Made by a program: the position numbers and the translations under genes. DNA of 64,000 nt from an uncultured delta proteobacterium (GTDB lineage: Bacteria; Desulfobacterota; Binatia; UBA9968): contig CAWJBB010000030.1 of NCBI GenBank assembly GCA_963840855.1, forward strand, positions 1-64,000, in the 5' to 3' direction. Positions 7,719 through 39,407 of the stretch are shown one piece after another (the first letter of the stretch is position 1; each line of letters opens with the position of its first letter). The notes under the pieces were generated by a model that saw only the letters and a program-made list of their open reading frames with translations, made no database searches and was not told where the DNA came from.

Positions 7719-8783
7719 TCAGTAGCCGTACTTCTCGACGATCGGTTGTAGCCGTTCGAGGTTGCGCTTGACCTCCTCGGTCTGAGAGATTTCCTGCCAG
7801 GCTTCCTGAGCCAATTCTTGCCTGATTACTTCCTTGACATCCTTGCGGGTGATCGAGGGAGACAATACGCCGGCGTCCTGATGCTCTTCGAGAATGCGCC
7901 ATACTCCTTCTTCGCTTAACTGACCATCCAAGGGGACGAAGTAACTCTCCATGAGCGCCGGTGAGAGGAGATCACGCATGCGTTCGGACTCATCGGGGTT
8001 GTCGACTCTGAGCTTGGCCTCGACAAAGCGGTGAAATGGGAAATTTTCCGGCGCCATGCGCATGGAGTGATAGCCGCGGATAGTCGCTTTCCAATAGCGC
8101 AGGATGAGTTCCGGGTTGCGCTCGATAAAGGATTTTCGCGCTATGGTGACCCGATCCGGCCTGCCATAGGGTTTGGTGTCTTCGACAAAATCGTAAATCT
8201 TGTTAAATCCCTGCTCCAAAAGCGTGGGAACAAAAGTATTGGCGACGATTGCGGCATCGGTCTCTCCGCGCAGCATGGGTTTCCACGCCTCTCGCATCGA
8301 ACCGTATTGGTAACCAATTTTCCATTCGATTTCGCGATCGGGATTGATGCCCACCTTGCGCAATTGGTGCTCGAACCACATCGTAGCAATCCCGCCTTTA
8401 TACCAGTCGCCGATTCTTTTGCCTTTGAGCTCTGGTATGGATTTGATACCCGGGGCGGCCACAAGCGTACCCGAGAACCAATTGCGCCAGCCGCCGATGA
8501 TGCGCACTTCGTCATTACCCAACGCCCGCTCGGCAAAGGGAGTGCGCACATGAACGTCCGGGATTATATCTATTCGGAATGCAATCATGTCGCGTAGGAC
8601 GGTGCCGACTTCATCGTATCTTTCACCATCCGGGCGGCTCGATTCGATGGCTTTAGGATTGACCTTCGCGTGGACGATTTCTACATCGAGTCCCTCCTGG
8701 GCGAACAGTCCCGCCTCAAGCGCATAAGTCGAGGCACGAACGTGGCCCGCATGCCAGCAACCATTACCTACCCGCAGTTTCAT
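7719..8783 (-). CDS. NMT1/SsuA-like SBP-fold protein without signal peptide, CWHxxH family paralog 1 (354 aa)
   Basis: EAGLFAQEGLDVEIV, ELKGKRIG, ETDAAIV, SFIERNPE PBP2 signatures; starts directly with MKLRVGNGCWH; SD aggag. Confidence 0.8.
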   Translation of the reverse strand: MKLRVGNGCWHAGHVRASTYALEAGLFAQEGLDVEIVHAKVNPKAIESSRPDGERYDEVGTVLRDMIAFRIDIIPDVHVRTPFAERALGNDEVRIIGGWRNWFSGTLVAAPGIKSIPELKGKRIGDWYKGGIATMWFEHQLRKVGINPDREIEWKIGYQYGSMREAWKPMLRGETDAAIVANTFVPTLLEQGFNKIYDFVEDTKPYGRPDRVTIARKSFIERNPELILRYWKATIRGYHSMRMAPENFPFHRFVEAKLRVDNPDESERMRDLLSPALMESYFVPLDGQLSEEGVWRILEEHQDAGVLSPSITRKDVKEVIRQELAQEAWQEISQTEEVKRNLERLQPIVEKYGY

Positions 8784-8852
8784 GATGACTCCTTAAAAAT
8801 CGATGCGTTGGAATGAAGGGCGCAAGAAATGTCGCCCCACAGGCACGCCGAA

Positions 8853-8881
8853 CCTAGCAAAAATTACAAATCTCCGTCAAG
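8853..8881 (-). promoter_or_regulatory. Sigma70-like promoter for paralog 1
   Basis: Minus strand TTGACG-N17-TAGGTT with extended -10 TG. Confidence 0.45.
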
Positions 8882-8939
8882 TTTGGCGCATTCGCCGCCC
8901 AACACTTCCGCTGTAGGTAATGATTTGGCTCAGGCACGT

Positions 8940-9346
8940 TCACCGCTTTATTTGCTCGAAGAATCCTTCCTTATCCAACTCAGCAACCAGGCTCGAATCC
9001 GCGAAGTCGGCCGGTTTCTTGCCCTTGAGCTCAGGGATCGCGGGGCTCATATCCTCAATCGCGGCTTCCAGGGCCTCTCTGATGGGATAAGGTTTATCAG
9101 GGTGAAGTCTGATCGTGTAGTTGGTGTGGGTCGACTCAAGAAAACGCGGTTCGACCTTGAGATATTTCTGCATCACTCGGAAGACGATCTCTTTGTTGGT
9201 TTTAGCCAGCCAGATTCCCTCGGAGATAGCTTTTAAAAAGGCCTTCAACTGTTGGCGCTGTGTTCCTGGCCGTAGCCGCTGTGCGCGCCGAACAACACGA
9301 GAAGAAGGCACCCCACGAACCCTGGTTTGCACAAAAGATGTCTCAC
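8940..9346 (-). pseudogene. NMT1-type SBP with large internal deletion
   Basis: GTG 9346 with SD aaggag encodes signal peptide MRHLLCKPGFVGCLLLVLFGAHSGYGQE, joined out of frame to the last about 100 residues (KAFLKAISEG...DSSLVAELDKEGFF). Confidence 0.7.
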
Positions 9347-14299: not shown

Positions 14300-16048
14300 G
14301 TGCAGGACTATCCTTCGTCCCTGGTACTAAGACGGTTTCCACGGCTGTTCGCAAGGCCCAGGTGGTCCAACCTATTGATCCCTGGGCTCGTCGGCCTGGT
14401 AGTGTATCTGGTCGCTATACCTTTGGGCCTGTTAATAGTCGGCGGTTTCAGCCGCGGAACCCCCGGTGATTTCACTCAACTGACGTTCGCCAACTACATC
14501 AAATCGTACGGCAGTCCGGCTCTCTTCGAGCTCTTTTACAATACGTTCGTGTTCGCCACCGGATCGGTTCTTCTTGCTCTTCCCGTCGCCGTAATCTTTG
14601 CCTGGCTCATCGAGCGCACCAACACCCCGTTGCGCAACGTTGCGTACGCGTTTGTGATCGCTCCCGTCGCCATGCCCGGCATGCTGCTGTCGATGTCCTG
14701 GGTGCTATTGATGAGTCCCAACGTCGGGATCATCAACCGAACGCTGATGTTTGTCTTCGGCCTGGAGGCCGCCCCGTTTAACATCTATTCCCTTGGCGGC
14801 ATGATATTCACCGAAGGACTGAGGCTTGTTCCCACGACGTTTCTTTTGCTGGTGGGAGCCTTTCGCGCCATGGACCCGTCCCTCGAGGAAGCGGCCCTGG
14901 TTTCGGGTGCCAACAAACTCGTCACCACCCTGCGCGTCACCCTGCGCATCTTGCTGCCGGCGATTCTGACAGCCACCATTTACATCTTTATGACGGCGAT
15001 CGAGAGCTTCGAGATTCCCGGCGTGCTCGGCCTGCGCAATGGAATTTTAGTGTTCAGCTCAAAAATCTACTACGCGACCACCTCGTCCTACGGCGGCGGT
15101 GCGAATTACGGCGAGGCAAGCGCGCTAAGCTCGACCTACCTGGTGATCAGTATTTTGTTGATCTACTTGTACCAGCGTTCGACGCGGCGCAGCGAGAGGT
15201 TTGCGACGGTGACGGGAAAAGGCTATCGCCCCAGACTCATGGATCTAGGCATGTGGAAATATGTCGCCCTGTTCTTTTTCGTCCTGTATTTTTGTCTCGC
15301 CGTGCTGTTTCCGATTCTCATCATGTTCTGGGCGAGTTTAATCCCGTTCTACCAAGCGCCCTCCTTCGAGGCCTTATCCGTTGTTTCTTTCTCAAGCTAT
15401 CGAGATCTTCTGGACGACGCTGAAGTCGCCAAGGCCGTGCGCAACACGGCTTGGCTGATGTTAGAGTCCGCCGGGGTAACGACCTTGCTCGCGACCACCA
15501 TCGCCTGGGTGGTGTTGCGCTCCAAGTTTCCGGGACGGCGCACGCTCGATGTCCTGACCTTTCTTCCCCACGCTGTCCCGAGCGTCGTTCTAGCTTTGGC
15601 CCTGGTTTACGTGTACCTAACCTTCGATTTCATCCCGATTTACGGCACGTCGTTGATTATACTCGTAGCCTTCGTTACGAAATACCTGCCTTTTAGCATG
15701 CGGACGTTGAGCGCCGGAATTATTCAGATTCACAAGGAACTTGAGGAAGCGGCGCGCGTCAGCGGCGCGCTGCCGACTACGGTCCTCAGAAAAATCGTCA
15801 TTCCACTGCTGCTCCCCACGATGGCGGGGGTAGCTATCTGGGTTGCCGTCCACGCGATGCGGGAGCTATCCATGGCGCTGATGCTTAACTCTACCTCGAA
15901 TAACGTCATCTCCTTTCTCGTCTGGTCTCACTGGGAGGCCGGTGAGTTACGTCATGCGGCCACCCTGGGAGTCGTGTTGATCGCGATCATGCTCCTAATG
16001 ACCTTTATCGGCCGATACTTGGCCACGAGAGGAATGAAAGTAGAGTAG
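14300..16048 (+). CDS. FbpB-type ABC permease (duplicated TM domain)
   Basis: Two EAA loops (MDPSLEEAALVSGA; IHKELEEAARVSGA); ATVTGKGYRP linker. Confidence 0.9.
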   Translation: MQDYPSSLVLRRFPRLFARPRWSNLLIPGLVGLVVYLVAIPLGLLIVGGFSRGTPGDFTQLTFANYIKSYGSPALFELFYNTFVFATGSVLLALPVAVIFAWLIERTNTPLRNVAYAFVIAPVAMPGMLLSMSWVLLMSPNVGIINRTLMFVFGLEAAPFNIYSLGGMIFTEGLRLVPTTFLLLVGAFRAMDPSLEEAALVSGANKLVTTLRVTLRILLPAILTATIYIFMTAIESFEIPGVLGLRNGILVFSSKIYYATTSSYGGGANYGEASALSSTYLVISILLIYLYQRSTRRSERFATVTGKGYRPRLMDLGMWKYVALFFFVLYFCLAVLFPILIMFWASLIPFYQAPSFEALSVVSFSSYRDLLDDAEVAKAVRNTAWLMLESAGVTTLLATTIAWVVLRSKFPGRRTLDVLTFLPHAVPSVVLALALVYVYLTFDFIPIYGTSLIILVAFVTKYLPFSMRTLSAGIIQIHKELEEAARVSGALPTTVLRKIVIPLLLPTMAGVAIWVAVHAMRELSMALMLNSTSNNVISFLVWSHWEAGELRHAATLGVVLIAIMLLMTFIGRYLATRGMKVE

Positions 16049-16054
16049 CCGGCT

Positions 16055-16930
16055 ATGCTTATCGCCATGCCTTACCCAACCATGACTTTTCTGCCGCTGT
16101 TGGTGGCGGAGGAAAAGGGCTTCTTTGCTGCCCAAGACGTAAACGCTTATTGCGTTCAAGTTCAGACCCACGGCGGCCAAACACTGGCGCAATTAGTCGA
16201 TAGTGGAGAAGTGGGTTTTCTCACTTCTTTGACGAACGCCATGGAGGCGGTGCTTTGCGACGGTCACGGCATCAAGTTTTTATGCGCCACGAGCTTGACG
16301 AAATTTCCTTGCGTGGCGCGGCCGGAAATCCGTTCCATCGCCGATCTCAAGGGGAAGAAAGTCATGTCTGGAGGCGGCCGGTCGAATACCGACCTGCGCT
16401 TCCTTTGCTCCCGTTACGGGTTGCGCCCGGGCGTCGACGTCGAGGTTGTTCAGGGCGACAGCGTCGGACGCGCCAAAGCGTTCGAAGACCCAACGATTGC
16501 AGCGGTGTTTGCCCGAAGCCAATTTCTCTACTGGGGGACAAAGGCGGGTTTTCGACCGCTTCATTATCCTGACCCCGGCATGGGCTGGTACGAAGGCGGA
16601 TTGGCCGCGGGAGTTTCTCTGGTTACTCGGCATCCCGATGTTATTCAGAAGGTCGTGAACGCGGTGGTGCGAGCCACCGACTTTTTAAAGACCAACGAGA
16701 AAGAAGCGGTTGAAGTCGCGTTAAAAAGGATTCCCCAGCTGAATCGCGATGAAGCGGAAGGAAACTACGCAATCCTGCGCGAGGGCTTCGTCGATAACCT
16801 CGAGCCTTCGGTGATCGATTACATGTCAAACGTCGTGGGCACGGTAAAAGCTAGCCCGCGACGCGTCACGCTGGAAGAAGTTGCAGATTTATCGTTTCTG
16901 CGCGAAGCGCATCGACGAGTGAAATCATAA
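16055..16930 (+). CDS. NMT1-like SBP-fold protein without signal peptide
   Basis: LPLLVAEEKGFF, SIADLKGKKV, EVADLSFL; no hydrophobic leader. Confidence 0.7.
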   Translation: MLIAMPYPTMTFLPLLVAEEKGFFAAQDVNAYCVQVQTHGGQTLAQLVDSGEVGFLTSLTNAMEAVLCDGHGIKFLCATSLTKFPCVARPEIRSIADLKGKKVMSGGGRSNTDLRFLCSRYGLRPGVDVEVVQGDSVGRAKAFEDPTIAAVFARSQFLYWGTKAGFRPLHYPDPGMGWYEGGLAAGVSLVTRHPDVIQKVVNAVVRATDFLKTNEKEAVEVALKRIPQLNRDEAEGNYAILREGFVDNLEPSVIDYMSNVVGTVKASPRRVTLEEVADLSFLREAHRRVKS

Positions 16931-18120: not shown

Positions 18121-18259
18121 TGAACTTTCCTCGTTTTCTTGTCGAACCGTATCCTGACCTCGCTCTGACTGTCAATCCGGAATCGGGATTTGACTCCCTG
18201 ATACACCGATAGTAACTATGCCTAATCATTCATGCGATCCAGCAAAGGAACCTCTAGTT

Positions 18260-19091
18260 ATGTCCAAGTCCGCTTATCAAGAATACGCTTTCGAAGATTA
18301 CGTGATCGCGGAGCAGCCGTTCTATATTCCCGTCGGTCCAGAAGTGGAGGTGTTTGAAGCGGCCTACGCCAAGAAACTTCCGGTCCTGCTCAAAGGTCCC
18401 ACCGGTTGCGGCAAGACCCGCTTTGCAGAATACATGGCGCACCGCCTCGGACCCGTGCCGCTCATCACCGTAGCGTGTCACGAGGATCTGACTGCGACGG
18501 ACTTGGTTGGTCGCTACTTGCTCGAAGGGCAGGAAACCCGCTGGTTGGACGGCCCCTTGACCCGTGCCGTCAAAGCCGGGGCGATCTGCTACCTCGACGA
18601 GATCGTCGAGGCGCGCAAAGACACCACGGTGCTGATACACCCGCTCACCGATCACCGGCGCATTCTACCCATCGAGCGGCGCGGCCAGGTGATTCAGGCC
18701 AACGAAAATTTTCTACTGGTGATTTCGTATAACCCCGGTTATCAAACGGTGCTCAAAGACCTGAAACACAGCACGCGCCAGCGCTTCGTTGCCATCGAGT
18801 TCGACTACCCGCCCGAGGAACTGGAACGAGAAATTGTCCGTCACGAAAGCGGCTTGTCGGAGGAGACCGGCGGATCGCTTAGCTTGTCTGGGCGCCAAGG
18901 TGCGCAATTTGCGGGAGCATGGGCTCCAGGAGGGAGTCAGCACTCGTCTGCTCATCTACGCCGGGACATTAATGAGCAGCGGAATTGCGCCCCGCCTGGC
19001 CTGCCAGGTCGCCGTGGTGCAGGCATTGACGGACGACAAAGAAGTTGCCCAGAGCTTGCAGGAAGTCGTCGACGCAATCTTTCCGGAATAA
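18260..19091 (+). pseudogene. cbbQ: CbbQ/NirQ/NorQ-family MoxR AAA+ ATPase, single frameshift near 18868
   Basis: [26 protein letters not shown]; C-terminal domain ([31 protein letters not shown]...) continues in another frame to TAA 19091. Confidence 0.85.
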
Positions 19092-28050: not shown

Positions 28051-28103
28051 ACAATATTATGGGGTTTCCAAAGGGGGCGAGCTGCATGAACGGCGGACGG
28101 CGA

Positions 28104-29168
28104 TCAGTAGCCGTGTCGCTCAATAACCGGCTGCAACCGTTCGAGGTTGCGCTTGATTTCGTCGGTCTGGGATATTTCTGCCCACGCCTCGCGCACCAGA
28201 TCCTGTTGCAGCAATGCCTCGACATCCGCGCGGGTGATGGACTTGGCGAGCACGCCGGCATCCTGATGTTCTTCGAGAATGCGCCACACTCCCTCGACGC
28301 TCAACTGGCCGTCCATGGGAAAGAAGGCGCCTTCCATGAGCTCGATAGACCAGAGATCGCGCATGCGCTCGGATTCATCGGGATTGGTCAGCCGCAGCTT
28401 GGCTTCGACAAAGCGCAAGAACGGATAGTTCTCCGGCGCGATGCGGATGAAATGATAGCCGCGAATAGACGCTTTCCAATACCGCTTGATCAGCTCAGGA
28501 TTGCGCTCGACGAAGCTCCTGCGCGCCACCGTGACGCGGTCCGGGCGGCCGTGCGGCTTGCTGTCCTCGACAAAATCAAAAATCTTGTTGAACCCGCGCT
28601 CGATCAACATCGGCACGTAAGGATTCTGCACAATCGCCGCGTCCGTCTCTCCGGCTAATAAGGGTTTATAGGCCTCCCGCATCGAGCCGTATTTGTAACC
28701 GATCTTCCAGTCGATTTCTCGATCCGGATCGATGCCGGCTTTGCGCAACTGGTGCTCATACCACATGGTGGCGATGCCGCCCTTGTACCAATCGCCGATC
28801 CGCTTGCCGCGCAAATCGGCGAACGACTTAACGCCCGGCGCCGCCACCAAGGTGCCGCGAAACTGATTGCGCCAACCGCCAATGATCCGGACCTCGTCGT
28901 TGCCCAGTGCGCGCTCGGCAAATGGCGTGCGGACGTGCACGTCGGGAATGATGTCGATGCCGAAAGCGACCATGTCACGGAGCACCGTGCCCACCTCATC
29001 GTAGCGTTCCCCGTCCGGTCGGCTTGCGGCAATCCCCTTGGGGTTGATTTTCGCATGCACTATCTCGGCATCGATGCCCTCCTGAGAAAAAAATCCCGCC
29101 TCCTGGCACAAAAAAGCGTGTTGGATATGAAATGCATGCCAACAAGCGTTGCCGACTCTCAGTTTCAC
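28104..29168 (-). CDS. CWHxxH SBP-fold family paralog 4 (354 aa)
   Basis: GTG start with SD gaggtg; MKLRVGNACWHAFH. Confidence 0.8.
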   Translation of the reverse strand: MKLRVGNACWHAFHIQHAFLCQEAGFFSQEGIDAEIVHAKINPKGIAASRPDGERYDEVGTVLRDMVAFGIDIIPDVHVRTPFAERALGNDEVRIIGGWRNQFRGTLVAAPGVKSFADLRGKRIGDWYKGGIATMWYEHQLRKAGIDPDREIDWKIGYKYGSMREAYKPLLAGETDAAIVQNPYVPMLIERGFNKIFDFVEDSKPHGRPDRVTVARRSFVERNPELIKRYWKASIRGYHFIRIAPENYPFLRFVEAKLRLTNPDESERMRDLWSIELMEGAFFPMDGQLSVEGVWRILEEHQDAGVLAKSITRADVEALLQQDLVREAWAEISQTDEIKRNLERLQPVIERHGY

Positions 29169-29350: not shown

Positions 29351-29836
29351 CTAGCCGGCCGATTCCGCGAAAAACTTCCCCGGCATCTCAATCGGCGGAA
29401 GCGAGTGGTTTTCTTCCGAGCCGCCCAGGATGGGCGTGCCATCGGGCATTAATCGCACCGCCTCGCCCTTTTGCGGTCTATCCGGTGTAAAAGCCGCCAT
29501 ACGCAACACCACCAAATTTCCCGCGCCGGTATTGAGGTAGCGATAATATGCTCCCTTGGGCAACATAACTCCCTGGTAGGGTTTTATTTTCAATTCCGCG
29601 CCGTTTTCGTCGAAGACGCTCATCTCGCCTTCCAACACGATAAACGCATGGTCCTGGTTGAGGTGCGTGTGAATCTCGTTTTCGCCCCCTTCGGCGTTGA
29701 TCTTCGTCGCGATCCACATGTTCTCGGTCTTTGCGACGGTTTGCGTCACCCGGCCTTGCTGCATATAGGGGGTTTTCAACGAGAACAGTTGCGCCTTGGG
29801 CGCCTCCTTCTCCTGTTTCTTTGCTACTGCTTCCAT
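29351..29836 (-). CDS. Cupin-domain protein
   Basis: GGENEIHTHLNQDHAFIVLEGE...LPKGAYYRY; SD aggag. Confidence 0.8.
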   Translation of the reverse strand: MEAVAKKQEKEAPKAQLFSLKTPYMQQGRVTQTVAKTENMWIATKINAEGGENEIHTHLNQDHAFIVLEGEMSVFDENGAELKIKPYQGVMLPKGAYYRYLNTGAGNLVVLRMAAFTPDRPQKGEAVRLMPDGTPILGGSEENHSLPPIEMPGKFFAESAG

Positions 29837-29931: not shown

Positions 29932-31635
29932 TTATGCCGCGGCATGCAACGCGTGATAGCGGGCGTTGCGGAGCACCCGGCCCGGCGTGGCGCCTGTATG
30001 CTTCCCATCCTCGATCAACACTTCGCCGTTGATGACGGTAAAGTGCACGCCATCCGCGAGCGCGCGCACCCGCCAGCCGTTGTTCGGCAGATCATGCACC
30101 ATTTCTTGCTTGCGCGGCTGCACAGTGTCGGGGTCAAAGACAACCAGGTCCGCCGCCATCCCGGGCTGCAACAGGCCGCGATCGTAAATGCCGAACGCCG
30201 TCGCAGAGTCAAAAGTCAGCCGCCGCACGGCCTGCTCCAGTGGCATGATGCCGCGCTCGCGCACCCAGTATCCCAGCATGCGCGTGCTGTAGCCGACTTG
30301 ACAGTGGAACTGCACATGCGCGCCGCCGTCGGAGAGGCCGACGACCGTATACGGGCTGGTCAGAAACTGGGTCATCGCCTCGCGGTCGGTATTATTCTGG
30401 CCCAGCGCGAACAGCGTGTTCAACTCCTCTTCCACGACGAGGTCCAAAAAGACGTCCAGCGGGTCTCTCCTCTGCGCGGCGGCTATTTCCGCTATGCTCT
30501 TGTTTTTTAATCCTTGATTCCGGGGCAAGGCGGGCTCTTCCACTAGTAGAAGATCCCATCGCTTGGCCCAGCGGGAATCCGGGCCCAATGGAGCCGCGAC
30601 TTCCTCGCGCAGCTTCTTGCGCAGCTCGAGGTCGCCGTAAGCGCGGATCTTGTCTTCATCAGGCGAGTTCATAATCTCCAACCAGGTGGGCAGTTGGCGA
30701 AACGTCTGACAGTTTTTCATGGTAAAACGTCCGACCACGCTGTTCGGACTGCAAAGCGGCACCGCCCGATTTCCCTCCCGGCAGCTCTCCTCGACAAAAT
30801 CCAAGTGCTGCTTCCAGCGCATCGGCGCGCGCGCATTCTCCGCAATCGTGTTGTAGATGACGCGCCGGCCGCTGGCCGCGGAAAGCCGGCTCATGAGCCG
30901 GTCTTTCAGCTCCGGCGTCGTGCCGCCGCCGCTTTGAATTACACCGGTGCCGAGTTCCCCGAGCGTCTCGGCCAAGGCAAACAGTTCCGGCTCCGGTGCG
31001 AACGACGCCGGGATGAGTTTTCCTTGCACGTCAAAATGGCTCATGTTGCGCGACAACGACAGGCCCAAGGCTCCAGCCTCTATGCCCTCGCGCACCACGC
31101 CGCGCATGACCTCGAGCTCGCCTTCGGTCGCCGCTCTTTCCTGGCTTGCTTCCCCCATGGCGTAAAGCCGCAGCGCCGTATGTCCCATCAGCGCGCCGAC
31201 ATTGACGCCGAGCTTGCGGTCGAGCACGTCCATATACTGTGGAAAGCTCTCCCAGTTCCACGGCACCCCGGCCTGCAAGACATCCATCGGGATCGCTTCC
31301 ACCTGGGACAACATGCTGATGAGCTTCTCATGATCATGCGTCCGCACGGGGGCGACTGCCAGTGAGCAGTTGCCGATAATGACGCTGGTCGCGCCGTGAT
31401 AGCATGAAAAGGTGCACAGCGGATCCCAGGTCACCTGAGCATCATAGTGGCAGTGGTTGTCGATGAATCCCGGCGCGATCACCTTGCCGTCCGCATCGAT
31501 GACGCGCTTGGCGGCGCCGCTGAGCCGGCCCAACTCCGCTATTTTTCCCCGACTAACCGCCACATCTCCCCGGTACGAGGGCATCCCCGAACCATCGACG
31601 ATCCGGCCGTTCTTGATTAACAAATCGTACGCCAT
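29932..31635 (-). CDS. N-acyl-D-amino-acid deacylase-family amidohydrolase
   Basis: YDLLIKNGRIVDGSG, PGFIDNHCHYD, IGNCS, SDGGAH, DRGLLQPGMAADLVVFDP. Confidence 0.9.
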   Translation of the reverse strand: MAYDLLIKNGRIVDGSGMPSYRGDVAVSRGKIAELGRLSGAAKRVIDADGKVIAPGFIDNHCHYDAQVTWDPLCTFSCYHGATSVIIGNCSLAVAPVRTHDHEKLISMLSQVEAIPMDVLQAGVPWNWESFPQYMDVLDRKLGVNVGALMGHTALRLYAMGEASQERAATEGELEVMRGVVREGIEAGALGLSLSRNMSHFDVQGKLIPASFAPEPELFALAETLGELGTGVIQSGGGTTPELKDRLMSRLSAASGRRVIYNTIAENARAPMRWKQHLDFVEESCREGNRAVPLCSPNSVVGRFTMKNCQTFRQLPTWLEIMNSPDEDKIRAYGDLELRKKLREEVAAPLGPDSRWAKRWDLLLVEEPALPRNQGLKNKSIAEIAAAQRRDPLDVFLDLVVEEELNTLFALGQNNTDREAMTQFLTSPYTVVGLSDGGAHVQFHCQVGYSTRMLGYWVRERGIMPLEQAVRRLTFDSATAFGIYDRGLLQPGMAADLVVFDPDTVQPRKQEMVHDLPNNGWRVRALADGVHFTVINGEVLIEDGKHTGATPGRVLRNARYHALHAAA

Positions 31636-31950
31636 TTGCCTTCCCTCCTTCATTACCTAACCGCAGATGGGCCGACTATAGGACTCGCTCGCAATGCTGT
31701 CAATTGATTCAAACTAAACCGAGTGTATAACATCCGCTACATGGTGGAAGTGGCAAGAAGCTGGGGAACGTATCGTGTCGAGGGAGGTGCACAGAGTAAC
31801 GCAGTCGATTCCTCAATGTAGCTGAACAAGATATCACACCACTAAAGGCCGGTACTTATCGCCGACGGTTGTTAGACTATACCACTGCTTGACGCTGCTG
31901 GACGACATGATACATTGGATATACATTATAGTACTCTCAAGGAGATGCCC

Positions 31951-32185: not shown

Positions 32186-32578
32186 GTGGCGCATCCGCTT
32201 TTCTTGACACTTGCCGAAGTCATCGAAATTCATGCCGATCAAATTCGTCGCTATGGCGGCCGGGCTGGACTTCGAGATTTAGCGCTGCTCGAGTCCGCCC
32301 TCGCCCAACCGGAGGCGTCCTTTGCAGGCGAGTGGCTGCATGGAGATCTCTATGCAATGGCCGCTGCCTACGCCTATCACCTGTGCCAAAATCACCCGTT
32401 CATCGATGGCAACAAACGAACCGGTCTTGCCGCCGCGTTGGTATTTCTCGAACTGAACGGTATCACGGTCCTGGATCCAAGAGGCCGGCTGAAAAATGCC
32501 ATGATTCGCATCGCCTCCGTCAAGATGAGCAAAGATGATTTCACCAAGCTCTTAACAAAACTGCCTCGACAAGAGTAA
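32186..32578 (+). CDS. doc: Doc (death-on-curing) Fic-family toxin
   Basis: HPFIDGNKR Doc motif; GLRDLALLESALAQP. Confidence 0.9.
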   Translation: MAHPLFLTLAEVIEIHADQIRRYGGRAGLRDLALLESALAQPEASFAGEWLHGDLYAMAAAYAYHLCQNHPFIDGNKRTGLAAALVFLELNGITVLDPRGRLKNAMIRIASVKMSKDDFTKLLTKLPRQE

Positions 32579-32892: not shown

Positions 32893-34014
32893 TCACCTGA
32901 TTACCCTGTCCGCCCGCGCCAGCACATTGGGCGGAATCGTCAGGCCGATCTGCTTCGCGGCTTTCAGGTTGATGATGAACTCGAACTTCTTTGGCTGCTC
33001 CACGGGAAGTTCGGCGGGCTTGGCGCCCTTGAGAATCTTGTCGACATACGTTGCCGCGCGCCGGTCCAAGTCGGTAATGCTCATGCCGTAGGACATAAGC
33101 CCACCGGCTTGCACAGATTCCGCCCCTTCGTATATCACCGGGAGCCGGCTCTTTACCGCGAGTTCTGCAATCTGTGGCCGCTGAAAGCTGACGAACGTGG
33201 CTGACACCCGGAAAAGGACCGCGTCAGCCCGCCCCTTGTCTGCGGCCCGGAATGCGGTCTCAACATCCTTGGAACTTAGGATGTCCAGGTATTGAAGCTT
33301 CACTCCTAACGCCCCCGCGGCGAGATCGAGATCTTTTAACACTTGCGCGTGGTCCTGGCTGGTTGAACTCACGAAAACGGCCACGCGGGAGAGCCTGGGA
33401 ACGATCTCCTTCAGAAGCTCCAGCCGTTTTCCGCTTAACTCCGGGCGAAAGGTTGAGAAACCAGTAACATTCCCGCCCGGCCGCGCCAGACTGGCGACGA
33501 AACCGCTTCCAACAGCGTCGCCACCATTAATCATGACAATGGGAATTGTGGTAGTCGCTTCCTTGGCTGCGCGTATATCTCCCGAACCGCGCGCGACGAT
33601 AACGTCTACCTTGAGACGCACTAGCTCGGCCGCGAGCGCGCGCTGGCGATCGCGGTTTCCCTCACCAGATCGCCATTCGATGACAATGTTTTTCCCTTCG
33701 ACGTAGCCGAGGTCGCGCAGACCCTGCCGGAATGTCTCGAGGCGAGCCGAGTCAGCGGAAAGCGAGGTGTTCGTTAGGTATCCTAGCCGCGGGATTTTTG
33801 TCGGCTGCTGCGCCAAAGCCGCAACTCCACCGAAGGCGAATATGAAAGCGAGGATGACAAGCCCAACCAATTTTCGTCTGCGGGGCCGCTTTTGAATTGT
33901 CGGACGCGTGTAGGGGCCGACCTGCGTGTCGGCCCTCCGAACGGGCGGACACCCTGCGACGTTACTCACGGCAGGCATAGGTCCGCCCCTACCATTGCAT
34001 GTTGCGTTCTTCAT
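32893..34014 (-). CDS. ABC_sub_bind (PF04392-type) substrate-binding protein with REP-derived N-terminal extension
   Basis: LGYVEGKNIVIE.R, ASLARPGGNVTG, GGLMSYG, KILKGAKPAELPVEQP; ATGA overlap with upstream paralog. Confidence 0.85.
   Translation of the reverse strand: MKNATCNGRGGPMPAVSNVAGCPPVRRADTQVGPYTRPTIQKRPRRRKLVGLVILAFIFAFGGVAALAQQPTKIPRLGYLTNTSLSADSARLETFRQGLRDLGYVEGKNIVIEWRSGEGNRDRQRALAAELVRLKVDVIVARGSGDIRAAKEATTTIPIVMINGGDAVGSGFVASLARPGGNVTGFSTFRPELSGKRLELLKEIVPRLSRVAVFVSSTSQDHAQVLKDLDLAAGALGVKLQYLDILSSKDVETAFRAADKGRADAVLFRVSATFVSFQRPQIAELAVKSRLPVIYEGAESVQAGGLMSYGMSITDLDRRAATYVDKILKGAKPAELPVEQPKKFEFIINLKAAKQIGLTIPPNVLARADRVIR
33910..33992. repeat. GTAG-type REP doublet (REPIN) with a second repeat nested inside
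   Basis: GTAGGGGCCGACCTGCGTGTCGGCCC (33910-33935) and inverted gggcggac...aggtccgcccCTAC (33943-33992). Confidence 0.8.
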
Positions 34015-35000
34015 CGAATCACCTGATTCGCCCGCGCGAGCAGGTCGGGTGAAATTGTCAGTCCAATCTGTTTTGCCGCCTTAAGGTTAATGACGAATTC
34101 AAACTTCGTTGCCTGCTGCACGGGCAAATCAGCCGGTTTGGCACCTTTTAAGATCTTGTCCACATAAACAGCCGCGCGCCGATAGAGGTCAGCGTAGTCT
34201 GCCCCGTAGAACATGAGACCGCCCTCATCGACAAACTCCTTCTGTGGATAAATAGCCGGCAACCGGTATTTACCAGCAAGCTCGACGATCCGCTTTCTTG
34301 CGGCCAAAAAGAACGGACCGCCGGTCGTCATAATTGCGCCCACCTGCTTCTGCTTGGCGGTCTGGAAAGCGCTCTCTAAACCTTTGGGTTCGCGTTGAGT
34401 CTCGATCTCCTCCAATTTTAACCTGAGCGCCTGAGCTGCCGACCTGAGCTCTTTCAGTTGGAGGTCTCCTCCTGCGCCGCCTCCCGCCGGCCGCAGAACT
34501 CCAACTCTGGCGAGCTTGGGAATGGCGTCCTTGAGTATCTCTAGCCTTTTGGTAATTAGCTCGTACGATAAACTCGCGAGCCCGGTCACATTGCCTCCCG
34601 GTCGCGCCAGACTGGCAACCAGACCTAAAGCCACGGGGTCTCCCGCTCTTGTCATTACGATGGGGATGGTAGTAGTCGCTTTCTTCGCGGCTAACGCCAC
34701 TCCAATTCCCGAGACCACAATTAGATCGACCTTAAGACGAACTAACTCCCCCGCAAGCTCAGGTTGGCGCTTAGGCTGTCCCTCCGCAAATCGGTACTCA
34801 ATGGCGATATTCTTTCCCTCAATCCAGCCAAGCTTGCTCAGCTCTTGCCGAAACGACTCCACGAGGACCGCGCTAGCGGAAGCAATGCTTGAATCTAGAA
34901 AACCTATGCGGAAGATTTTCCCTGTCTGCTGCGCCTCGGCGAGAAAAACAGTAAGCAGAAGGACAGTAAGCGCCAGGCAGACAACAATACTTCTAATCAT
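34011..35000 (-). CDS. ABC_sub_bind substrate-binding protein
   Basis: Signal peptide ending AEAQQ; same motifs as paralogs. Confidence 0.9.
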   Translation of the reverse strand: MIRSIVVCLALTVLLLTVFLAEAQQTGKIFRIGFLDSSIASASAVLVESFRQELSKLGWIEGKNIAIEYRFAEGQPKRQPELAGELVRLKVDLIVVSGIGVALAAKKATTTIPIVMTRAGDPVALGLVASLARPGGNVTGLASLSYELITKRLEILKDAIPKLARVGVLRPAGGGAGGDLQLKELRSAAQALRLKLEEIETQREPKGLESAFQTAKQKQVGAIMTTGGPFFLAARKRIVELAGKYRLPAIYPQKEFVDEGGLMFYGADYADLYRRAAVYVDKILKGAKPADLPVQQATKFEFVINLKAAKQIGLTISPDLLARANQVIR

Positions 35001-35049
35001 TTGTTTCCCTCTCTTATACTGCCAACTGCATTCTGCTCACTGCCGGCTG

Positions 35050-35128
35050 TCATTCGATGATCCGTGTGAAAGAGCATTTTCGGTGGGATTGTAAGACTGA
35101 TCGGTTTGGTCTCGGTGCTGAAATTTAG
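35050..35128 (-). pseudogene. 3' relic of a further ABC_sub_bind gene
   Basis: Translates LNFSTETKPISLTIPPKMLFHTD, then IE* in a shifted frame, versus paralog INLKTAKQIGLTIPP.VLARA..VI.*. Confidence 0.55.
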
Positions 35129-35190
35129 ACACGACATTTAAAACAATTTTTTTATGACCTTATGCCGCTAATGCTTGTGGTTGGAACGCT

Positions 35191-35433
35191 TCAATCCGGA
35201 AGACGGTCGTAAACTTCGGGCTGCACTTTAGGAACTTTCGCCATGGCGCGTTTGAATTTCTTTCGATTGCCACGTTTGGCTCGTTCTTCAAGATAGTCCT
35301 CGGTCATCAGTGCAGAGATTTTCTCAGCCAAAGCGAGTGTAATTAATTGATTGATAGAGACACTCTCTTTTTCAGCCAATCGGCGCACTTGCTTATGCAA
35401 GGAATCGGGGAGGCGGAGGCTAATTGTACTCAT
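35191..35433 (-). CDS. Ribbon-helix-helix antitoxin (HicB-like)
   Basis: STISLRLPDSLHKQVRRLAEKESVSINQLI; ATGA overlap with PIN toxin. Confidence 0.85.
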   Translation of the reverse strand: MSTISLRLPDSLHKQVRRLAEKESVSINQLITLALAEKISALMTEDYLEERAKRGNRKKFKRAMAKVPKVQPEVYDRLPD

Positions 35434-35861
35434 GGCAACTCTCCTATGGCTCTCAAAAATTCTTGAGCGGTCATTACGCGAACGCCAAATTGCTCCACAC
35501 CTTCAAAATCATCTTTGTTATACGTGACGATAATATCGCAGCCTGCGGATACGGCCAATTCGAGAACCATATCGTCTTTCGGGTCCTTTAAGAATGGCCG
35601 CCATAGGTAATAAACTTTTCTTCGATTCGCCACAGAGCAAACATAGTCGAGGACGTCGTCAACGTCGCTTGGTCTCAGGCCAGTTTTCTTACCGACGAGT
35701 CGCTTGGCTACCTCTTCGTACTCGAAGATCAACGGAACGGAAACGTTGATTTCAAACTTCCCGCTTTCGAGAAGCATAAAGAGTTTATTAGACGCTCCGT
35801 ATTGTGACCGCAGGGCCGCGACGAGTACGTTGGTGTCGGCGACGATTCGGGGCGGGCTCAC
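35430..35861 (-). CDS. PIN-domain toxin
   Basis: VADTNV, EYEEV, DPKDDMVLELA, VTYNKDDF acidic PIN residues; probable GTG start. Confidence 0.9.
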   Translation of the reverse strand: MSPPRIVADTNVLVAALRSQYGASNKLFMLLESGKFEINVSVPLIFEYEEVAKRLVGKKTGLRPSDVDDVLDYVCSVANRRKVYYLWRPFLKDPKDDMVLELAVSAGCDIIVTYNKDDFEGVEQFGVRVMTAQEFLRAIGELP

Positions 35862-35868
35862 TGCTGGT

Positions 35869-35897
35869 ATCGTATGCAATACCGCCCGATTTGTCAA
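35869..35897 (-). promoter_or_regulatory. Sigma70 promoter, leaderless PIN toxin transcript
   Basis: TTGACA-N17-TACGAT-N7-GTG. Confidence 0.65.
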
Positions 35898-36051
35898 TTT
35901 GGAGTTCGGTAGATCTGACTCACAAATCTGGTCGGCGCGCAGTTTGCGTTTTTGGTTGAAGTGGAAGCGAAGTGTTTTGATTGTCGGACGAAATTCAGAT
36001 CAAAAATTTGGCTTTAAGATCATTTTCATTTCTTCTGCTGCCCAGCCAAAA

Positions 36052-37044
36052 TTATTTGATCACTTGATTCGCCCGCGCTACCACGTCAGATGGAATTGTC
36101 AGTCCGATCTGTTTCGCCGCGTTCAAGTTGATGACAAACTCGAACTTCGTTGCCTGCTGCACCGGCAAATCAGCCGGTTTGGCGCCTTTCAAGATCTTGT
36201 CCACGTAAACAGCCGCGCGCCGATATTGGTCAGTGTTGTCCGACCCATAGGACATGAGGCCGCCCCCATCGACATACCCCTTGTCTGGGTAAATAGCCGG
36301 CAACCGGTATTTGCCGGCAAGCTCGACGATCCGCTTTCTTTCGGCTCCAAAGCGGCGACCGGGGGTCGTCATAATCGCGGTCACCTGCTTCTGCTTTGCG
36401 GTTTGAAAGGCGCTCTCTAAACCTTTGGCGCCGGGTTGAGTCGAAATGTCTTCTAAGTTTAGCTTCAATGCCAGCGCCGCAGCTCTTAGCTCTTTCAGTT
36501 GGAGGTCTGCTGTTATGCTGGTTCCCGGCCACCGCAGAAGCCCGACTCGTGAGAGTCTGGGGATGGCGTCCTTGAGTATCTCTAGCCTTTTGGTGTTTAG
36601 TTCGGTCCCTAAACTCGAGAGCCCCGTGACATTGCCTCCCGGCTGCGCCAGACTGGCAACCAAACCTGCACGCACGGGGTCTCCGCCGCTCGGCATCACG
36701 ATGGGGATAGTAGTAGTCGCATTCTTCGCCGCTAACGCCGGTGTCGTCGCTGGGGCTACGATCAGATCGACCTTTAGACGAACCAAGTCCGCCGCAAGCT
36801 CGCGTAGGTGCTCAGCGCCCTTGCCCTCTCCAAACCGGTACTCGATGGTGAAATTCTTCCCCTCAATCCAGCCAAGCTTGCTCAGCTCCTGCCGGAACGC
36901 GTCCACGAGGACCGCGCTACCGGAAGCAGTGCTCCCATCCAGGAAACCTATGCGGAAGGTTTTTCCCGGTTGCTGCGCCTCCGCGGACGAGCAAAGCGCA
37001 AAGAGCATAGCGCAAAGAGTAAGGACAGTGATTTTTGTCTTCAT
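36052..37044 (-). CDS. ABC_sub_bind substrate-binding protein
   Basis: Signal peptide MKTKITVLTLCAMLFALCSSAEAQQ; conserved motifs. Confidence 0.9.
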   Translation of the reverse strand: MKTKITVLTLCAMLFALCSSAEAQQPGKTFRIGFLDGSTASGSAVLVDAFRQELSKLGWIEGKNFTIEYRFGEGKGAEHLRELAADLVRLKVDLIVAPATTPALAAKNATTTIPIVMPSGGDPVRAGLVASLAQPGGNVTGLSSLGTELNTKRLEILKDAIPRLSRVGLLRWPGTSITADLQLKELRAAALALKLNLEDISTQPGAKGLESAFQTAKQKQVTAIMTTPGRRFGAERKRIVELAGKYRLPAIYPDKGYVDGGGLMSYGSDNTDQYRRAAVYVDKILKGAKPADLPVQQATKFEFVINLNAAKQIGLTIPSDVVARANQVIK

Positions 37045-37099
37045 GTCTTTTGCCCTGACTTGATCCACTCGTCACTCGACACTTGACACTCGCCCCTTC

Positions 37100-38098
37100 T
37101 CACTTGATCAGCCTATTCGCCCGCGCCAGCACCTCCGGCGGAATCATCAGGCCGATTTGCTTCGCCGTTTTGAGATTGATCACGAACTCAAACTTCGTCG
37201 GCTGCTCCACCGGCAGATCGGCAGGCTTGGCTCCTTTCAGAATCTTGTCCACGTAGTATGCGACGCGCCGGTAGCTGTCCGCGAGGTCCGCCCCGTAGGA
37301 CATGAGCCCACCGGCATCTACAGCTTCTTTGTTGCCGTATATCGACGGTAACCGGCTCTTTAACGCAAAGCCCACGATCCGTTTTCGGTTAGCAAGCATT
37401 AGCGCAAGCCCCCGGTCACGTAGAGTCCATCCGGGCGCTGCTTGGTCAGCGCAGCGAATACCCGGTCGAAATCGTCCGCAACTTCGTACCTCCCAAGGCT
37501 GAATAGTCAACCTCAGCGCACGCGCCGCGACGGGGAGAATCTCTTTCACCTCGCGTACATTGGGCGGATTGGCCGGATCGTAGAGAACCGCGACACGGGC
37601 AAGTTTGGGAACGGCTTCTTTGAGCAACTCAAGCCGCTTACCGCCTAGTTCTCGGCAAGGTTTGTAACGCCCGTGACGTTGCCGCCGGGACGGGCAAGGG
37701 TTTCAACAAAGCCTGCCTCGACAGGATCGATCCCAGCGCCCGTCATAACGATGGGAATCGTCTTGGTCGCATTCTTGGCCGCCTGGATCAGCGGGTCCCC
37801 TCCTGCTGCCACGATGATATCAACTTTGAGCCGCACCAGCTCAGCCGCAAGCTCAGGGAGCCGATCGCGCTTCCCCTCCGCATATCGGTACTCGCTGGCG
37901 ATGTTCTGTCCTTCTATGTAGCCACGATCGCGCAGAGCCAGCCGAATTGCCTCGAAACGGGCGGACGTCAGTAGCTGGATCGATATTGGATAGATAGCCT
38001 ATCCGCGGGACTTTCTTCGGCTGCTGCGCTTCGGCGATCACGACAACAGTAAGCAGCGTCATTGCAATCAGGGCTGATGACAGGCCAGCATTCTTCAT
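37100..38098 (-). pseudogene. ABC_sub_bind substrate-binding protein with about four frameshifts
   Basis: Consecutive domain pieces in different frames; shifts near 37969, 37652, 37483 and 37408. Confidence 0.8.
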
Positions 38099-38342
38099 CG
38101 CACGCTCCATTCCTGGCGTTATTTATCACGCGGATGGAAGTAAAGAAAAGGATGATCACGGCAGAAGGCGAAAGGTATTCGTCGCGTAGCAAGGCCGGAT
38201 TCATCCCGAGATTGAACTGATTGCCGCGTCAGTTCAGTCTTCAAAAATTTAATAAACGCCACAGCCATCCTTGCCTAAAAGCGGGCAGAGGAGCGAGACC
38301 GAGCGATTGACGATTCGGAATAGCAAGCAGTATATTCCGGCG

Positions 38343-39407
38343 ATGAAACTCCGAGTCGGTAACGCGTGCTGGCATGCTTTTCACGTCCAGCATGCACTGC
38401 TCTGCCGTGAGGCGGGCTTTTTCGCGCAGGAAGGCATCGACGTCGAGATCGTCCACGCAAAAATCAATCCGAAGGCCATCGAGTCGAGCCGGCCCGGTGG
38501 CGAGCGCTATGACGAAGTGGGTACGGTTTTGCGCGACATGGTGGCATTCGGCATCGACATCATTCCCGACGTGCATGTGCGCACGCCGTTCGCCGAGCGT
38601 GCCCTGGGCAACGACGAGGTACGCATCATCGGCGGTTGGCGCAATCACTACGGCGGCACTGCCATGGCCGCGCCGGGCGTCAATTCCATGCGCGATCTAA
38701 AAGATAAGCGCATCGGCGACTGGTACAAGGGTGGAATTCACACGATGTGGTGGGAGCGCCAGCTGCGCCAGGCGGGTCTCAATCCTGAACGGGATGTGCA
38801 ATGGAAAATCGGCTACCTGTACGGCTCGATGCGGGAAGCCTGGAAGCCGCTTCAACGCGGCGAGACCGACGCGGCGATCGTGCAAAATCCTTGGGTGCCC
38901 ATGCTGCTCGAACAGGGCTTTAACAAGCTTTACGATTTTGATGAACAGACAAAACCCTATGGGCGGCCGGATCGGGTGACGGTGGCGCGCAAGTCCTTCA
39001 TCGAGCGCAATCCCGAGTTGATCAAGCGCTTTTGGAAAGCGGCGATCCGCGGTTATCATTTCATGCGTATTGTTCCTGACAATTTCGCGTTCCAGCGTTA
39101 CGTTGAAGCTAAACTGCGCGTTGACAATCCCGACGAGTCGGAGCGCATGCGCGACCTGACGCCCATGGTGATGATGGAAGGCCATTTTTTCCCTCTCGAC
39201 GGACAACTCACCGAGGAAGGGGTGTGGCGGATTCTAGAGGAACACCTGGACGCTGGGGTGCTCTCGAGGTCCATCACCCGCGCCGATGTGGAATACCTGA
39301 TCGATCAAGATTTGGTTCAGGAAGCGTGGGCTGAGATCTCCGAGACCGACGAAGTCAAACGCAATCTCGAACGGCTTCAACCGGTGATAGAACGCGTGGG
39401 ATACTAG
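38343..39407 (+). CDS. CWHxxH SBP-fold family paralog 5 (354 aa)
   Basis: MKLRVGNACWHAFH; TTGACG-N18-TATATT-N6-ATG, no SD. Confidence 0.8.
   Translation: MKLRVGNACWHAFHVQHALLCREAGFFAQEGIDVEIVHAKINPKAIESSRPGGERYDEVGTVLRDMVAFGIDIIPDVHVRTPFAERALGNDEVRIIGGWRNHYGGTAMAAPGVNSMRDLKDKRIGDWYKGGIHTMWWERQLRQAGLNPERDVQWKIGYLYGSMREAWKPLQRGETDAAIVQNPWVPMLLEQGFNKLYDFDEQTKPYGRPDRVTVARKSFIERNPELIKRFWKAAIRGYHFMRIVPDNFAFQRYVEAKLRVDNPDESERMRDLTPMVMMEGHFFPLDGQLTEEGVWRILEEHLDAGVLSRSITRADVEYLIDQDLVQEAWAEISETDEVKRNLERLQPVIERVGY

Follow-up and report, generated by a model that had tools for sequence, protein, structure and literature searches.

A clade of signal-less NMT1-type proteins with a conserved (His/Cys)-x-His-x-x-His motif, encoded beside Rieske oxygenase and permease genes in an uncultured Binatia bacterium

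Five conserved paralogs without export signals

The window analyzed here is a stretch of 64,000 nucleotides (positions 1 to 64,000 of contig CAWJBB010000030.1, assembly GCA_963840855.1) from an uncultured delta proteobacterium assigned by GTDB to the Binatia. It contains five genes for related proteins of 354 residues, three of them in a tandem triplet (paralogs 1 to 5; all coordinates are collected in Table 1). An earlier, sequence-only reading of this DNA had proposed that these are cytoplasmic enzymes or ligand sensors built on the fold of substrate-binding proteins (SBPs). The open reading frames (ORFs) and their translations bear out its description of five genes of equal length sharing the N-terminus MKLRVGN(G/A)CWHAxH. 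Paralogs 1 and 4 are the longest ORFs at their loci, while paralogs 2, 3, and 5 correspond to internal ATG starts of slightly longer ORFs. The motifs ERYDEVGTVLRDM, PDVH, GDWY.GGI, and GRPDR are invariant across the five copies, as had been noted; NPDESERMRDL, which had been listed with them, is invariant from its proline onward only, the asparagine being replaced by serine in paralog 2. Each protein has one or two cysteines; Cys9 is the only one common to all five, and two copies have no other. A sixth close copy is found on another contig of the same genome, designated G000 (G000:C80:87259-88320). In what follows, subfamily A denotes the close paralogs of the five and subfamily B a second group.

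The five proteins are 73-79% identical to one another (77-78% when compared with the first copy). Their genes show 71.5-74.6% identity, with only 44-50% at third codon positions. The rate of nonsynonymous substitution (dN) was 0.14-0.19, and that of synonymous substitution (dS) was 1.4-2.8, or not computable due to saturation in three of the 10 pairs; dN/dS amounted to 0.05-0.135 in the seven computable pairs. The saturated dS and the low dN/dS indicate that the five genes are old duplicates under strong purifying selection, and neither recent copies nor chance ORFs. In a tree computed with FastTree, the three members of the triplet and the two remaining copies of the window fell into separate orthologue clades, each with a distinct synteny, which also argues for old duplications and for the maintenance of the copies as distinct genes. 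The clade of paralog 1 retains the arrangement of a subfamily-A gene next to a Rieske gene in L019 and L024; those of paralog 2 (L010, L012, L015, L037), paralog 3 (L009, L010, L015, L037, L027, L028, L014), and paralog 5 (L037, L038) comprise other loci, and subfamily A alone contains about 10 orthologue groups. Fragments of 100-260 nucleotides of all three tandem genes, with 90-100% likeness, were present in metatranscriptome contigs from four soil or rhizosphere runs belonging to three studies; these were RNA libraries, in which DNA carry-over is possible, and the portions without coverage carry no information.

The sequence-only reading had claimed that the five proteins have neither a signal peptide nor a lipobox. 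This was assessed in ORFs of at least 250 residues, taken at their greatest length, by scanning residues 1-60 for a hydrophobic window of 10 residues on the Kyte-Doolittle scale, which is coarser than a dedicated predictor. Searched with a profile of the five paralogs, G000 yielded 121 NMT1-like ORFs. A hydrophobic N-terminus was found in none of the six subfamily-A proteins and none of the seven subfamily-B proteins (31-35% identical to subfamily A, starting with ...TCYHxLH, and likewise devoid of a signal peptide), as against 77 of 104 other NMT1-like ORFs, in agreement with the claim. The possibility had also been raised that real starts further upstream might provide an export signal. Between the five starts and the preceding stop there are 3, 42, 17, 1, and 29 in-frame codons, respectively; the printed stretches are hydrophilic, and no hydrophobic segment was found from any possible upstream start of the five paralogs, even in the longest ORFs. 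Furthermore, most of 120 listed homologues are 353-354 residues long and begin in the same way, and strand 1 of the fold already starts at residue 2 in the AlphaFold2 model of paralog 4. The SBP_bac_8-type proteins encoded in the window have obvious signal peptides, unlike the five paralogs. We considered a lipoprotein in which Cys9 would be lipidated and rejected it: only eight residues precede the cysteine of VGN[AG]C, there is no hydrophobic core, and these residues form strand 1. From their sequences, we conclude that the five paralogs are non-exported, cytoplasmic proteins and not substrate-binding subunits of an ABC (ATP-binding cassette) importer.

Motif, fold, and putative anion site

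A profile search of 1.84 billion representative proteins gave 90 matches at E <= 1e-30, and 36 distant relatives of full length, with 22-36% identity, were aligned for a count of residues by column. At position 9, 25 of them have His, five Cys, three Asn, and three another residue; the next residue is aromatic in 33, and positions 11 and 14 are His in 35 each. Position 58 is Asp or Glu in 35, position 76 Asp in 30, position 211 Arg in 31, position 236 Arg in 35, and position 286 Asp in 30. Position 78, on the other hand, is Lys or Arg in 23 and His in only two. The conserved unit is therefore (His/Cys)-aromatic-His-x-x-His with acidic residues, and not the quartet C9/H11/H14/H78 that had been put forward as a metal or catalytic site. 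From that proposal H11, H14, and position 9, with its Cys/His swap, survive, whereas H78 is a feature of subfamily A only, its place among the residues conserved over long range being taken by D76, D/E58, and R211.

The motif sets the clade apart within its own genome. The pattern [HC][WYFH]HxxH occurs in all 13 subfamily-A and subfamily-B ORFs of G000 and in none of the 104 other NMT1-like ORFs. Profile-profile alignment of the clade with 89 other NMT1 proteins of G000 gave a probability of 100% and an E value of 2e-49, and these 89 proteins have no conserved residue at columns 9, 11, 14, 76, and 211. In the model, strand 1 spans residues 2-6 and helix 1 residues 12-24, and the motif, residues 9-14, falls between this strand and the first helical turn; strand 3 comprises residues 73-78 and has residue 76 at its end. 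Strand 3 neighbors strand 1 in the strand order described for this fold (PMC9672406). With these two strands adjacent, residues 9-14 and residue 76 would both be placed at the cleft edge of lobe I. The exchange of Cys for His at position 9, flanked by two invariant His, suggests that this position provides a metal ligand; a catalytic Cys of the DszB type would not be expected to become His. By its pattern of conservation, the His/Cys cluster behaves like a metal site, and we infer that it probably binds a metal.

All five proteins match Pfam NMT1 (PF09084) with 51-56 bits, above the gathering cut-off of 20.5, and score below the cut-off of the SsuA family TIGR01728 (36.8-58.7 bits versus 163.5). 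The model of paralog 4, computed from a 30-sequence alignment (mean pLDDT 91.6, pTM 0.90), shows a two-lobed type-II binding-protein fold extended by a long helical C-terminal region (residues 217-352). Its structural neighbors are all of the NMT1/NrtA kind: CmpA and NrtA (PDB 2g29, 2i48-2i4b; Z 20.9-21.4 over 302-306 residues), the Bordetella protein 3qsl (Z 21.4), the cytoplasmic regulatory domain (CRD) of CmpC/NrtC (9uai, 9uak, 8wm7; Z about 20), Thi5 (Z 19.7), SsuA (Z 19.6; range for SsuA/TauA 17-19.6), DszB (2de2, 2de3; Z 17.7 over 280 residues), MqnD (Z 16.0), MqnA (Z 15.4), and the 4,5-dihydroxyphthalate decarboxylase of Comamonas testosteroni KF-1 (9jp7; Z 14.6 over 271 residues with 17% identity). 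The kinship in fold with DszB, Thi5, MqnA/MqnD, and 4,5-dihydroxyphthalate decarboxylase, advanced in the sequence-only reading, is thus seen in structural matches with Z of 14.6-19.7. Since binders and enzymes are both found among the structural neighbors, the fold alone cannot tell one kind from the other. In the ESM Atlas, only NMT1 clusters were matched.

Comparison by sequence with proteins of solved structure, using a wide family profile of 54 sequences, ranked the CmpC regulatory domain first (E 1.6e-19), followed by 3qsl (4e-18), NrtC (2.7e-15), ThiY (2e-14), CmpA (4.4e-14), SsuA (3uif; 5e-14), THI13 (6e-12), and NrtA (1.2e-11). The match with 4,5-dihydroxyphthalate decarboxylase was partial (E 4e-6, profile positions 53-152) and that with DszB was confined to residues 154-232 (E 2e-3). 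A single distant relative used as query gave the same order. The alignment with NrtA, CmpA, and the CmpC/NrtC CRD reaches profile position 320 of 340 and includes the C-terminal subdomain. The enzymes that had served as precedents thus share the fold, but the nearest solved relatives by sequence are NrtA, CmpA, and CmpC/NrtC, which the sequence-only reading had missed. We conclude that the paralogs belong to an uncharacterized clade of the NMT1/NrtA-CmpA type-II periplasmic-binding-protein fold.

These relatives allowed us to examine the putative ligand site. The CmpC domain is a cytoplasmic nitrate sensor consisting of lobe I, lobe II, and a C-terminal subdomain, and it contacts nitrate through Trp319, His408, Gly452, and Lys481, the lysine setting the anion specificity (PMC13287603). 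Arg211 of the paralogs, which belongs to the invariant GRPDR, aligns with Lys481 of the CmpC CRD and with the corresponding lysine of NrtC (Lys480), so that the charge is conserved. Counted along the alignment, His408 corresponds to residue 133 and Gly452 to residue 181; Trp319 was not aligned. Only nine columns are invariant inside each orthologue group yet change from one group to another, and residues 133 (A, H, or Y) and 181 (Q, R, or A) occupy two of them. The retention of R211 with group-specific residues at 133 and 181 suggests a conserved anion site with few specificity positions. As the positions of His408 and Gly452 vary, nitrate itself is an unlikely ligand of the five paralogs; the cleft ligand of the clade would be anionic and probably a carboxylated aromatic compound.

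Gene neighborhoods and distribution

The triplet belongs to a minus-strand string in the order amidohydrolase, cupin, three subfamily-A genes, secreted SBP, bicupin, fused double permease, and 674-residue protein. Paralog 5 heads a plus-strand string in which it is followed by a Rieske gene, a RidA-like gene, a second Rieske gene, a fused permease, a secreted SBP, and a hydrolase. The statement that no permease or ATPase gene is nearby was half right: the 64-kb window contains no match to the ABC_tran ATPase, yet it contains three fused double permeases, two of which share gene strings with paralogs. These permeases are of the fused PhnU2-like type and pair with SBP_bac_8-type proteins. The paralogs are far less diverged (73-79% identity) than the co-located Rieske proteins (35-70%), bicupins (26%), SBPs (26-60%), and permeases (31-45%).

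Table 1. Positions of the genes and other features of the window
Feature	Coordinates	Strand	Remarks
tRNA gene	3708-3780	-	
Rieske + LigXa_C oxygenase	6332-7684	+	
Paralog 1, subfamily A	7719-8783	-	354 residues; convergent with LigXa-like Rieske oxygenase gene
Fused double ABC permease	14300-16048		
NMT1-like protein	16055-16930	+	291 residues; no signal peptide; directly downstream of permease 14300-16048
MoxR/CbbQ-type AAA_5 ATPase	18218-19183	+	Adjoins the 674-residue protein
674-residue protein, like von Willebrand factor A (VWA)/metal-ion-dependent adhesion site (MIDAS)	19231-21255	-	No Pfam match; VWA by eye, no model match; last gene of conserved block
Fused double ABC permease	21265-23031	-	2 x BPD_transp_1; PhnU2-like
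Bicupin	23236-24375	-	Distantly like gentisate or 5-aminosalicylate 1,2-dioxygenase
Secreted SBP_bac_8/6-type binding protein	24487-25617	-	Signal peptide visible; directly downstream of triplet
Paralog 2, subfamily A	25700-26764	-	354 residues; third of tandem triplet
Paralog 3, subfamily A	26799-27863	-	354 residues; second of tandem triplet
Intergenic region	27864-28103		Between triplet genes 1 and 2
REP-like element	27980-28007		28-base palindrome
GC-rich hairpin, then TTT	about 28030-28050	-	After first gene of triplet
Paralog 4, subfamily A	28104-29168	-	354 residues; first of tandem triplet; GTG start; sequence used for model
C-W-H-A-F-H motif	29127-29144	-	Codons 9-14 of paralog 4
Single-domain cupin	29351-29836	-	Upstream of triplet
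Amidohydrolase_3 family protein	29932-31653	-	Heads minus-strand string
Promoter-like site	31703-31675		At Amidohydrolase_3 gene
Fic/DOC protein	32186-32578	+	
Four PF04392 ABC_sub_bind paralogs in a row	32893-37627	-	Last one 37100-37627, 175 residues
PIN_3 toxin with HicB/RHH-type antitoxin gene	35191-35433, 35430-35897	-	
Paralog 5, subfamily A	38343-39407	+	354 residues; heads plus-strand gene string
Rieske + LigXa_C oxygenase	39523-40752	+	
RidA/YjgF-like protein	40791-41252	+	
Rieske + LigXa_C oxygenase	41459-42793	+	
Fused double ABC permease	42911-44728	+	
Secreted SBP (SBP_bac_11/8/6/1)	44760-45872	+	
Alpha/beta hydrolase like meta-cleavage-product hydrolases	45731-46711	+	HsaD/BphD models E 1e-45, below their cut-offs
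NMT1-like protein	46879-47790	+	303 residues; no signal peptide; three genes after permease 42911-44728
thiE	51152-51781	-	
thiG	51791-52600	-	
Thiamin pyrophosphate (TPP) riboswitch	52859-52970	-	71.6 bits; upstream of thiG and thiE

We then scanned neighborhoods in one genome per species (75 loci, nearly all from metagenome-assembled genomes labeled Candidatus Binatia or 'delta proteobacterium'). Neighbors were counted within four ORFs of 50 subfamily-A genes, the window's five included (33 with at least 5 kb on both sides); ORF clusters were named by Pfam, and the background was the fraction in the window's own genome. SBP_bac_8-type neighbors were found for 35 of the 50 genes (background 0.163), another NMT1-like gene for 34, a LigXa-like Rieske gene for 16 (0.043), a bicupin for 14 (0.014), a fused permease for 13 (0.048), and the 674-residue protein for seven (0.003). 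The block of three subfamily-A genes, SBP, bicupin, permease, and 674-residue protein recurs in several genomes, and some subfamily-A copies have no permease nearby. An ABC ATPase gene was within 5 kb of none of the 50 genes and within 10 kb of one. With regard to a consistent linkage to permease and ATPase genes in other genomes, which the sequence-only reading had named as evidence against its proposal, the ATPase half is absent and the permease half is partly present.

The lack of an ATPase near the fused permeases led us to consider whether signal-less NMT1 proteins stand in for it. Among the 36 full-length fused permeases of G000, 18 have neither partner, 11 an ATPase only, six a signal-less NMT1 protein only, and one both, and this candidate role was rejected. 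Altogether, 24 of the 36 have no ABC ATPase within five genes. The window contains two more signal-less NMT1-like proteins, of 291 and 303 residues, which belong to other subfamilies without the His/Cys motif.

Around 46 subfamily-B genes the neighbors were different: secreted TctC-like proteins (27), PF13941 'MutL' (23), enoyl-CoA hydratases (12), and CoA-transferases (nine). At loci L040-L083 the subfamily-B gene is typically followed by a TctC-like gene and PF13941 'MutL', often near genes for CoA-transferases and enoyl-CoA hydratases, and in the window's own genome a subfamily-B and a TctC-like gene overlap (L004:9650-13443). At a single locus, a distant relative without a signal peptide and with the motif G-H-Y-H-T-G-H (L088:7971-9008) is preceded by pabB-, pabA-, and pabC-like genes (chorismate-binding, class-I amidotransferase, and class-IV aminotransferase) and followed by two SBP_bac_5 genes.

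Several other features of the window were recorded. The C-terminal part of the 674-residue protein has a DxSxS-like stretch of VWA/MIDAS character, so that with the adjoining AAA_5 ATPase it may form a pair like NorQ/NorD or CbbQ/CbbO. The REP-like (repetitive extragenic palindromic) element beside the hairpin has 17 copies in the genome (with at most four substitutions), and many unrelated metatranscriptome contigs end in it. Promoter-like sites such as the one at the Amidohydrolase_3 gene are no commoner than expected from shuffled sequence. The Fic/DOC and toxin-antitoxin genes lie between the catabolic clusters, and the last of the four ABC_sub_bind paralogs covers profile positions 124-291 only and is probably truncated.

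The clade is narrow and patchy in its distribution, yet multiplied where present. When 150 other genomes were sampled evenly across this GTDB phylum, none had a match at E <= 1e-30, so that the range of the family is much narrower than the phylum. Among 30 relatives, matches were present in 13 of the 18 that belong to the family of G000 and in one of the 12 that represent two further families of the order. Scores at the level of subfamily A were reached, besides G000, only by G151, G153, and G162 among these 30, in several of which just some of the candidates were scored; the unpublished genomes G159 and G165 gave B-type matches only. The closest record, L010 (99% identical), is labeled Acidobacteriota by its submitter, and most others Binatia or delta proteobacterium. 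The bin G000 (7.1 Mb, 8.3% estimated contamination) shows extreme expansions of uptake and oxygenase families: about 185 SBP_bac_8-type, at least 121 NMT1-like ORFs, 47 fused-permease, 38 LigXa-like Rieske, and 13 bicupin genes. In databases the homologues are labeled 'ABC transporter substrate-binding protein', and cluster names are generic or absent. A literature search, which left out most subscription journals, found nothing in print on the clade, and the terms ABC transporter, substrate-binding, Rieske, sulfonate, and aromatic are all absent from the main Binatota genome paper. Plasmid-borne relatives, 23-28% identical, are canonical SBPs with an adjacent ATPase and permease, and serve as a contrast only.

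Possible functions and comparison with known systems

We tentatively favor the view that the paralogs are metal-dependent cytoplasmic enzymes on an NrtA/CmpA-like fold, which bind an anion and operate in aromatic-catabolic clusters. The anionic ligand would be held in the cleft by Arg211, which takes the place of the lysine that binds nitrate in NrtA and the CmpC domain, and lobe I would supply (His/Cys)9-x-His11-x-x-His14 and Asp76, most likely holding a divalent metal (Fe, Zn, or Mn). The activity might be of the lyase, decarboxylase, or hydrolase type and be exerted on carboxylated or other anionic intermediates of aromatic-catabolic clusters in which genes for Rieske oxygenases, bicupin dioxygenases, and an uptake system are also present. 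This view is placed first because the motif looks like a metal site and is absent from the ordinary binders of the family in this genome, because enzymes arose repeatedly on this fold, and because the partners are oxygenases and hydrolases. A more specific version, about which we are doubtful, is that of a new metal-dependent family on the NrtA/CmpA scaffold, whose (His/Cys)-x-His-x-x-His site in lobe I, beside an anion-binding Arg, would carry out the (de)carboxylation or related C-X cleavage of aromatic acids, a generic step multiplied in soil Binatia-like bacteria.

Several observations weigh against an enzymatic function. Of the CHARACTERISED relatives, those closest in sequence are binders and a sensor domain rather than enzymes, and the structural Z with CmpA/NrtA (21.4) is above that with every enzyme. 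We know of no enzyme with a (His/Cys)xHxxH motif, and among database names no member of the clade has more than a generic one. In three distant relatives (P0152, P0169, and P0185) the motif occurs together with a Sec or lipoprotein signal; it is thus not confined to cytoplasmic proteins and is compatible with an extracellular binding role. Finally, the commonest neighbor is a secreted SBP, and permeases are common too, which fits a transport-linked role as well, and the 50 neighborhoods are not independent, since tandem copies share neighbors and synteny is inherited.

Because the nearest solved relatives by sequence are binders and the CmpC/NrtC sensor domain, the sensor half of the earlier proposal is fully alive. 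The paralogs would then be stand-alone cytoplasmic anion sensors, homologous to the CmpC/NrtC regulatory domain, that tune an adjacent importer or another partner without catalysis, a possibility that we rank not far below the enzymatic one. The best sequence match is indeed with these domains (structural Z about 20) and extends into the C-terminal helical subdomain, and R211 matches the anion-binding Lys. The regulatory domain of CmpC is documented as a cytoplasmic nitrate sensor that locks the ATPase domains of the transporter until nitrate binds (PMC13287603). Genes for secreted SBPs and fused permeases are enriched around subfamily-A genes, and the paralogs are far more conserved than the specificity-bearing proteins of the operon, as would fit a conserved protein partner. 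Yet the paralogs are not fused to an ATPase (a search among longer proteins gave one remote sensor kinase at E 1e-10, which is weak evidence), no ATPase gene is found within 5 kb of the 50 members, and several copies have no permease nearby. Furthermore, fused permeases without a nearby ATPase are common with or without a signal-less NMT1 protein, as the 18/11/6/1 split indicates, and nothing in the CRD aligns with the His/Cys cluster, which precedes the aligned region.

The three-ligand motif with its Cys/His swap and the co-occurrence with iron-dependent oxygenase families would also agree with proteins that supply Fe(II) or another metal to Rieske or cupin oxygenases, perhaps with the pair formed by the MoxR-type AAA+ and VWA-like proteins. 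In this regard, the 674-residue VWA-like protein is a neighbor of seven of the 50 members, AAA_5 neighbors are seen, and the paralogs are nearly identical across operons with differing catabolic enzymes. We consider this improbable, for it leaves R211 and the anion-binder C-terminal subdomain unexplained, the group-specific columns 133 and 181 point to a ligand of organic or anionic nature, and no precedent for such a role is known to us. That the paralogs are ordinary exported SBPs of ABC importers, with mis-called starts or an unrecognized export route, corresponds to the database annotation and to the Pfam NMT1 match; SBP and permease genes are nearby, three distant motif-bearing relatives have signal peptides, and tandem multi-copy SBP genes are common. 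This is nonetheless highly improbable in view of the hydrophilic upstream extensions, the start conserved in most of the 120 listed homologues, strand 1 beginning at residue 2, the sequence VGN[AG]C, which is not a lipobox, the clear signals that other NMT1 and SBP_bac_8 proteins of G000 carry, the scores below the SsuA cut-off, and the lack of a cognate ATPase nearby. Least probable, by a wide measure, are Thi5-like hydroxymethylpyrimidine (HMP) synthases or cytoplasmic binders of thiamin precursors. They are suggested by the Pfam NMT1/THI5 match, by the Z with Thi5 and the wide-profile match with THI13, and by the presence of thiG, thiE, and a TPP riboswitch within the window. Thi5 is characterized by a PLP (pyridoxal phosphate)-binding Lys, a donor His, and a C-terminal CCCxC motif, and no CCCxC run is present in the five copies; six copies per genome in catabolic clusters are also a misfit for a biosynthetic single-turnover enzyme. 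A link to thiamin through the riboswitch was rejected, as the riboswitch immediately precedes thiG in a separate gene string and is over 13 kb away from any paralog.

Hundreds of entries of the clade carry the label 'ABC transporter substrate-binding protein', which is almost certainly wrong for a cytoplasmic protein. If the His/Cys cluster is a metal site, the clade would represent an undescribed conversion of a binding fold, either to an enzyme or to a free-standing sensor of the CmpC/NrtC type. It would also put a name to a highly conserved step that is so far missing from the picture of the large aromatic-catabolic islands of uncultured soil Binatia-like bacteria. The proteins are small and soluble and have few cysteines, which makes these ideas cheap to test.

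Among known systems, the CmpC/NrtC regulatory domain resembles the paralogs in being cytoplasmic and in its architecture of two lobes and a C-terminal helical subdomain; it differs from them in being fused to an ATPase, whereas the paralogs stand alone (homologues have about 350 residues) with no ATPase gene nearby, in its His408 and Gly452, whose positions vary in the paralogs, and in lacking a stretch that aligns with the (H/C)xHxxH cluster. NrtA and CmpA, the top structural matches, share the C-terminal extension, but they are exported, lipid-anchored subunits of transporters (PMC13287603), while the paralogs have neither a signal nor a cognate transporter set. SsuA and TauA have the Pfam NMT1 domain and the fold in common with the paralogs, which differ by their scores below the TIGR01728 cut-off and by the absence of a signal peptide and of SsuB/SsuC-type neighbors. 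DszB is a cytoplasmic enzyme on the same fold with a catalytic Cys27 near its N-terminus (PDB title 'C27S mutant'), placed just after strand 1 by the sequence-only reading; its sequence similarity is marginal. Cys9 is present in subfamilies A and B, but His occupies this position in 25 of the 36 distant relatives, which speaks for a metal ligand and against a proton-donating Cys as in DszB. Thi5/THI13, MqnA, and MqnD are likewise enzymes on this fold, though no shared motif was found and they serve biosynthetic rather than catabolic pathways. MqnA has a C-terminal helical clamp of roughly 90 residues, and enzymes of this Venus flytrap (VFT) fold restrict the motion of the lobes (PMC9672406). 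4,5-Dihydroxyphthalate decarboxylase, whose sequence match is weak and partial, is a cytoplasmic enzyme acting after a phthalate-family Rieske dioxygenase in its pathway (PMC13040137), and the neighbors of the paralogs also include phthalate-family-like (LigXa_C) Rieske oxygenases. Cytoplasmic enzymes and a sensor domain are thus already known on this fold, and the clade is a variant among them rather than a new category.

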